DNA from: Centroscyllium fabricii
Taxonomy: Eukaryota
NCBI GenBank assembly: GCA_051313645.2
Contig: JBNRSN020000009.1
Span: 221,712,001 to 221,776,000 of the forward strand
Reading direction: 5' to 3'
Length of the DNA stretch: 64,000 bases
Below the pieces are notes generated by a model. The model was not told the origin of the DNA. It was given only the letters and a program-made list of their open reading frames with translations, and did not search any database. Position 1 is the first letter of the stretch, and each line of letters starts with the position of its first letter. Positions 63,098 to 63,350 of this stretch are shown one piece after another. The position numbers and the translations under genes are program-made.

Positions 63098-63331
63098 TGT
63101 GATAAACTGTATATCACTATAATACCGTGTAATACCTGTATGAGATCCCAGGGACATACCTGGCGCCGCCCATGACTCCTCCCCCGCTGGAGGAGGTATA
63201 TAAGGGACTGTTCCCCATCCCCCGCGCCATTCTGGGGACAGTCAGCTCGGTTGAGTATCTCTAACGTAGTTAATAAAAGCCTGATTATTATAACCTACTA
63301 TTCGACTCCGAAGACGTTATTGACGGTTACA
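63098..63331 (+). mobile_element. 5' LTR of a Gypsy-type retrotransposon
   Basis: tgtgataaac...ggttaca (TG...CA); TATATAA near 63197; AATAAA 63272-63277; starts where Penelope homology stops. Confidence 0.85.
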
Positions 63332-63350
63332 ATTTTATTAACTACTTGAA

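Follow-up and report, generated by a model that had tools for sequence, protein, structure and literature searches.

Covarying self-complementary primer sites in an animal Ty3/Gypsy lineage suggest priming from the element's own RNA

The Tf1/sushi chromoviruses are the elements for which self-priming is regarded as characteristic. In this group, as portrayed for Tf1 and Tf2 of S. pombe, Tj1 and Tosmo1-3 in the accessible text of three papers, there is no tRNA site and what follows the 5' LTR is complementary to part of R; the reverse transcriptase (RT) cuts out the primer, which is the very 5' end of the RNA (PMC4600332, PMC5341516, PMC10085805). The fission-yeast members, as far as these excerpts describe them, carry a chromodomain. 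In plants, Tcn1 (Gypsy) and TAR (Copia) are predicted self-primers, and the accessible part of that report gives as their signature an LTR complement of at least 10 nt that starts 0-5 nt after the 5' LTR (PMC6317226). Among animal elements, the small chromodomain-less Ty3/Gypsy clade of Cigr-1, known from Ciona and molluscs, would fit the host range described below; its primer site is not covered in the portion of PMC6238403 that is accessible.

Here, we describe a Ty3/Gypsy element that starts at position 63098 of a 64,000-nucleotide stretch of DNA from the shark Centroscyllium fabricii (the window), together with its relatives. The element resembles the Tf1/sushi elements in its Ty3/Gypsy domain order, in having no tRNA site and in carrying a site that is complementary to a segment of its own LTR, and it shares the signature of Tcn1 and TAR. 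Unlike in Tf1/sushi, however, the pairing segment would lie 37 nt behind the inferred transcription start and not at the RNA 5' end, and the run-on copies described below appear to place the RNA end 50, not 13, nt before the 3' end of the stem. In addition, many families of the 63098 lineage overlap the stem with a poly(A) signal, and no chromo family was detected at E<=0.01 in pol of this element or of seven relatives. Since two Tf1/sushi features, the chromodomain and pairing from the very front of the RNA, failed, we keep the element out of that group; our quick unrooted RT tree covers only the 63098 lineage. Tcn1 and TAR belong to other lineages and hosts, and primer length, start and poly(A) overlap are not given in the accessible portion of PMC6317226. 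Our literature search, in which subscription papers, older element descriptions and Repbase were thinly covered, returned no account of a long-primer arrangement for these animal elements; the complement could already be mentioned in Butler et al. 2001, in the description of Cigr-1 or in Repbase reports. While self-priming is known in Tf1, what is added here is footprint evidence that points to a long 5' primer and a putative start mapped from DNA.

The element and its primer-binding position

All features given here lie on the forward strand. The 5' LTR (TG...CA, 234 bp) spans 63098-63331 and is preceded by the left copy of the target-site duplication, ACTTG (63093-63097), whose right counterpart follows the 3' LTR outside the window; the whole element measures 4,583 bp, extends past the window and sits in older repeat DNA. 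The 3' LTR equals the 5' LTR apart from one 9-bp repeat-unit indel and follows a purine tract, and a second LTR with a 5-bp duplication is also present in five of the six other copies fetched. The LTR pair and the 5-bp duplication thus fix the LTR end at 63331 independently, which confirms the LTR end given in the initial annotation and leaves no room for an artefact in which the true LTR end lies elsewhere, beside a concealed tRNA-complementary site. The gag ATG is at 63351, as annotated. That annotation had also claimed that a tRNA site is absent, and indeed no TGG follows the LTR and the site changes in step with the LTR, in which the element departs from the tRNA-primed Gypsy elements Mag, CsRn1 and Osvaldo. 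An identity with the Mag C-clade was considered and found unsupported; Mag elements use tRNA sites according to the accessible text of PMC3286476. The 9-bp repeat unit of U3 (63098-63130; also L009, L012-L014) is absent from one LTR only, sometimes the 5' and sometimes the 3' copy.

The gag frame leaves the window at its edge (63351-64000) and contains a CCHC motif; the protein is gag-like by Atlas features only and has no Pfam match. It is followed, by Pfam, by protease, RT (YLDN), RNase H and integrase, in that order, and the best match of the RT among solved structures is the Ty3 RT (E 5e-51). The order of these domains behind gag, together with the TG...CA LTR pair, the purine tract and the target duplication, identifies the element as Ty3/Gypsy. 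Gag and pol occupy separate frames in this copy (L008:843-4837), which looks broken, and most of the best 150 gag matches have a single open frame of ~1,333 codons; the RT motif is YLDN (L008:2783-2794) in most relatives and YLDD in some. Sharks and rays supply the nearest named proteins (75-86% in RT/RNase H), ahead of an anemone, nematodes and a damselfly (about 60-65%). No relatives turned up in the viral contigs searched. Eight animal-type retrotransposon contigs inside GTDB bacterial genome bins (L155-L162) are likely host contamination. Another two members of the lineage lie 1.6 kb past the 63098 element (L008:6830-10000), oriented oppositely and meeting at an LTR start, one of them with a compensatory stem change; a minisatellite array with a 40-bp unit occupies 60600-62400, 700 bp upstream.

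The initial annotation had drawn attention to a pair of complementary 13-mers, and their positions and exact complementarity hold. The LTR segment at 63266-63278 reads GTAGTTAATAAAA, with AATAAA at 63272-63277, and its exact reverse complement forms the primer-binding position at 63333-63345, one spacer base (A, 63332) behind the LTR end. GCCT (63279-63282) directly follows the LTR segment, and the resulting AAA/RCC junction is the predicted cut site; further upstream, a TATA-box-like motif, read from the sequence, with a putative promoter role, lies at 63197-63204. When the LTR was shuffled 20,000 times, 0 shuffles produced a 13-nt complement with its start at most 4 nt from the LTR end, and the leader (133 nt) folds with the stem in both MFE and centroid structures (z = -2.0). 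No Rfam family matched positions 63000-63500 at E<=1. Among 49 elements compared, the spacer base is A in 47 and T in 2, a count in which 29 of the 49 were chosen by a pattern that fixes that base.

Covariation of the site with the LTR

A second family of this lineage is represented in the window by a solo LTR (25331-26270) that an insertion splits, and the initial annotation had predicted which site should follow the 5' LTR in this family. Thirty loci of the family were collected; 24 were 3' or solo LTRs, and five of the six that continue into an element carried A followed by TTTTATTACCTAA exactly as predicted, while the sixth has a short deletion. The insertion in the solo LTR (about 25366-25985) has terminal inverted repeats and an 8-bp duplication, and we take it to be hAT-like.

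The expected covariation between the post-LTR 13-mer and the bases that flank AATAAA was then found within a family, across shark families and in outside relatives. Within family 1, to which the 63098 element belongs, a subfamily with an altered site accounted for 26 among the 100 matches listed. The matching LTR base was present in 8/8 copies with this altered site and in 22/22 of the other type, with one discordant copy among the one variant type searched. Across the genome, a junction pattern that fixes only five base pairs and leaves eight positions free had 238,347 matches, or roughly one in every 30 kb, while its control had 62. The first 30 junctions all pair, 24 perfectly over 13-16 nt, five with internal mismatches and one over 242 nt; in the 29 other copies, 225 of 232 free positions are paired, compared with a mean of 156 and a maximum of 181 in 10,000 sets of shuffled partners. 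These 29 shark copies carry 16 different 13-mers, and pairing falls to 0.55 at position 14 and to background from position 15 on. As the copies are related, the pair count overstates the number of independent changes.

We fetched 88 loci from beyond this genome; an LTR pair could be called in 18, and 55 had enough upstream DNA. A complement of 10-19 nt that starts one base after the LTR is present in 15 of the 18, against a control, taken behind the 3' LTR, that never exceeds 6 nt, and the AAA/RCC junction is kept in 15 of these 18 families. An LTR-free scan of the non-shark relatives found the stem in 29/55, 27 of them in register, and in 3/55 on the opposite strand; the other 26 may be truncated or decayed. 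One locus (L112) is a reversed element and was set aside, and two others (L090, L155) had false LTR pairs yet real stems in the LTR-free scan. The fixed register and junction span RTs that are only 47-65% identical. So many different sites cannot be tracked by a host RNA, and the primer should therefore be encoded by the element. Taken together, these comparisons strongly support the 13-bp pairing as a conserved self-pairing primer site, and we consider it very probable that the lineage uses self-priming of some kind.

Run-on copies and the proposed primer

The 242-nt fold-back copy prompted a search for copies with a complement longer than 13 nt. The copy itself (L254:1264-1798; G000:C1, near 732,650) is a perfect 242-bp LTR fold-back at the primer site with two U3 ends and the 5-bp duplication GTCGG. 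In family 1, 98 copies with a longer complement, here called run-on copies, stand against 3,952 normal ones, a share of ~2% of insertions, so that ~98% of copies keep only 13 nt. Ninety-six were examined, 93 remained after removal of tandem repeats and 78 had distinct junctions. The arms of these 78 end at 16-25 nt in 8 cases, at 26-35 in 2, at 36-45 in 14 and at 46-54 in 33; past this edge, one ends at 55-64 nt and 20 later. Ungapped arm lengths are too short for five long arms (L309, L320, L323, L347, L354), and the 46-54 edge is unaffected. An arm of 50 nt reaches as far as position 63229, which is the A of cATTC and lies some 30 nt past the TATA-like box, and a start by RNA polymerase II is expected ~30 nt after a TATA box. 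We considered whether microhomology bias could cause the edge and rejected this, since the edge persists when only junctions with 2 nt or less of microhomology are counted (44 in all, with 20 at 46-53, 7 at exactly 50 and 1 at 55-64) and the supply of microhomology varies at most 2-3-fold.

A second family group with other leader sequences gave a similar picture. Here 70 of 672 matches were examined and 68 could be scored; 18 of these arms stop no more than 4 nt from the A of CATT, 11 of them exactly there (11-12 distinct junctions by eye), and the positions from +5 to +13 have none. In family 1, most copies re-enter the element interior behind the arm and finish in a normal 3' LTR. Among its 72 copies with arms of at most 54 nt, a downstream LTR is present in 58 and a matching 5-bp duplication in 42, which identifies the short-arm copies as integrated products of reverse transcription. 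In one copy (L314; G000:C689, near 98,876,300), three tandem LTRs lie within one 5-bp duplication, and the LTR junction consists of a 50-nt arm and one extra base. Fourteen run-on copies of several subfamilies (L297, L303, L307, L310, L312, L321, L337, L345, L348, L352, L353, L371, L373 and L375) jump to the same spot in the protease region, as either a recurrent junction or spreading deletion forms.

We think it likely, from the pattern of the footprints, that the primer is the first ~50 nt of the element's own RNA (63229-63278, from the A of cATTC to TAAAA), paired only through its last 13 bases and cut after TAAAA. Transcription would start at about 63229, a position that rests on the DNA footprints, and the leader would fold such that 63266-63278 pairs with 63333-63345, in line with the covariation. 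The RNA would then be cut after TAAAA, probably by the element's RNase H by analogy with Tf1, to create a 3' end that lies a single base away from the LTR end and at which minus-strand DNA would begin before jumping to the 3' R via a short stretch downstream of the cut. Later, the plus strand would normally copy 13-14 nt of the attached primer before its removal and thereby regenerate the complementary site. In ~2% of insertions, copying would continue to the primer 5' end and then jump into the element body. We believe that this is the simplest route to the arms, which would reflect a plus strand that passed U5, ran on along the still-attached primer and fell off its 5' end. However, arms could also arise from a plus strand annealed to the 5' end of a second, uncut RNA, in which case they would map the start and not the primer. 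Next to the predicted cut, an inner helix that would start at the RCC of the junction is only partly supported, with a mean pairing of CC of 0.59 versus 0.38 for shuffled sequences and higher values in 32/49 elements; with regard to the three-duplex 'pretzel' leader of Tf1/sushi, a helix of this kind occurs in many outside families and is weak in family 1. In the accessible part of PMC11363490, Ty3 RT cuts RNA 11-12 nt from its polymerase site, and a similar cutting distance could set the 13-14 nt that are kept.

A rival reading is that the 3' copy of R could prime, the same or a second packaged RNA pairing at the site by its 3' end and being cut after TAAAA. In three family-1 copies directly and in 6/70 of the second group, the arm crosses U3 and enters the inverted purine tract, and one further family-1 copy has an arm into inverted 3' internal sequence (the four are L299, L347, L351 and L359). 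A 5' fragment cannot template such arms; an RNA 3' end or longer DNA is needed for them. Moreover, 3'-R priming would leave the whole of R for the first jump, whereas under the 5' model only some 15-30 nt would be left, if the poly(A) site lies at its usual distance behind the signal. On the other hand, the RNA is continuous over the U3/R border at this end and gives no cause for a sharp stop (33 versus 1 in family 1; 18 versus 0 in the second group); the simplest cause of the stop at 63229 is an RNA end at the start site, which only the 5' R has. In addition, no copy with a rare variant common to both LTRs and the site was found among the variants searched. That search covered three site positions, with 0, 6 and 3 variants, and one LTR position, with 2; eight of the nine site variants were site-only, one was mirrored in the 5' LTR only and none in both LTRs. 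The rare variants give little sign that the primer templates the site, with too few cases. Arms always match the subfamily of their own copy, and mismatches therefore cannot separate the routes; no clear recombinant between subfamilies that could report on the first strand jump was found among 239 LTRs. We regard 3'-R priming as the general route as unlikely, and a minority of long copies may reflect priming by a second RNA's 3' end, as a minor trans route. Other arms stop where U3 begins, in about 15 copies of family 1 and about 20 of 70 in the second, older group, and fit a fold-back of plus-strand DNA on itself, as DNA hairpins.

Slightly less probable again is a short primer of 13-14 nt, made by a second cut or by a second start at 63266 as in Tf1, with the long arms derived from the intact 5' end of another RNA. 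The retention of only 13 nt by ~98% of copies and the sharp boundary at 13-14 would agree with it, and it is nearest to the Tf1 model as given in the accessible text of PMC10085805 and PMC4600332. No TATA-like motif lies at the usual distance upstream of 63266, however, and arms from free RNA should, as we see it, use the 3' R at least as often as the stem-bound 5' R, whereas in family 1 arms of at most 54 nt outnumber arms into the purine tract by 57 to 4. We therefore continue to favour the ~50-nt primer from the RNA 5' end.

The poly(A) signal, the lineage and its significance

For the 3' LTR of the shark families, the stem sequence likely also serves as poly(A) signal. AATAAA or ATTAAA lies in the stem of 29/29 shark copies, the position toggles only between these two, and the partner strand is found only after the 5' LTR, from which we infer that the 3' LTR probably makes use of the signal, which would be base-paired in the 5' leader. 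HIV relies on a tRNA as its primer. Structural hiding of the 5' signal has been proposed for HIV-1, where, in the accessible text, the R poly(A) signal is base-paired in the 5' leader by a poly(A) stem-loop (PMC12789967); in contrast to that local hairpin, the partner in the 63098 element is the primer-binding position itself. The initial annotation had offered two roles for the fold-back, a self-primer and the hiding of the poly(A) signal, and while the first is well supported by the covariation, the second fails as the common denominator and as the main role. In eight of the 18 families from outside, both hexamers are missing from the stem, two of these eight carrying weak poly(A) signal variants, and two families (L076 and L158/L159) hold AATAAA in the loop, outside the stem. 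The primer of LTR elements must sit at the LTR end, and the constant feature is precisely the register one base from that end, which hiding would not need; masking would thus be at most a second use, plausibly a side effect in the shark families. We consider it improbable that the stem mainly masks the 5' signal while another primer is used, as no other primer site follows the LTR.

Least credible of all is a complement made and kept at the DNA level, by template switching between nearby inverted arms and with no priming role: one copy (L202; G000:C1:175,414,533) does share a rare change between 5' LTR and site that is absent from its 3' LTR, the 5' LTR change being present in only 2 copies, but such an origin leaves the fixed register and junction across these divergent RTs unexplained and fails on the absent tRNA site and on arms that stop at the inferred start in duplication-flanked copies.

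With somewhat less confidence than for the 63098 element itself, we lean towards the wider reading that an old chromodomain-less animal Gypsy lineage may prime with a capped ~50-nt piece of its own leader, which would pair through its last 13-14 bases, be cut at the conserved AAA/RCC junction (in sharks also the poly(A) signal) and have its site rewritten in each cycle. Sharp biochemical predictions follow from the length of the primer, from its overlap with the poly(A) signal and from the limit of 13-14 nt. If the proposal is true, misfires of reverse transcription, fixed by the hundreds in a genome, let the start site and the primer be read from DNA, and run-on copies would offer a way to map the primer and start of any self-priming family from assemblies alone. 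Annotation tools that demand a tRNA site would miss or misjudge such elements. Finally, one genome contains ~238,000 of these junctions, and priming without a tRNA may thus lie behind one of the largest LTR expansions of a cartilaginous fish.
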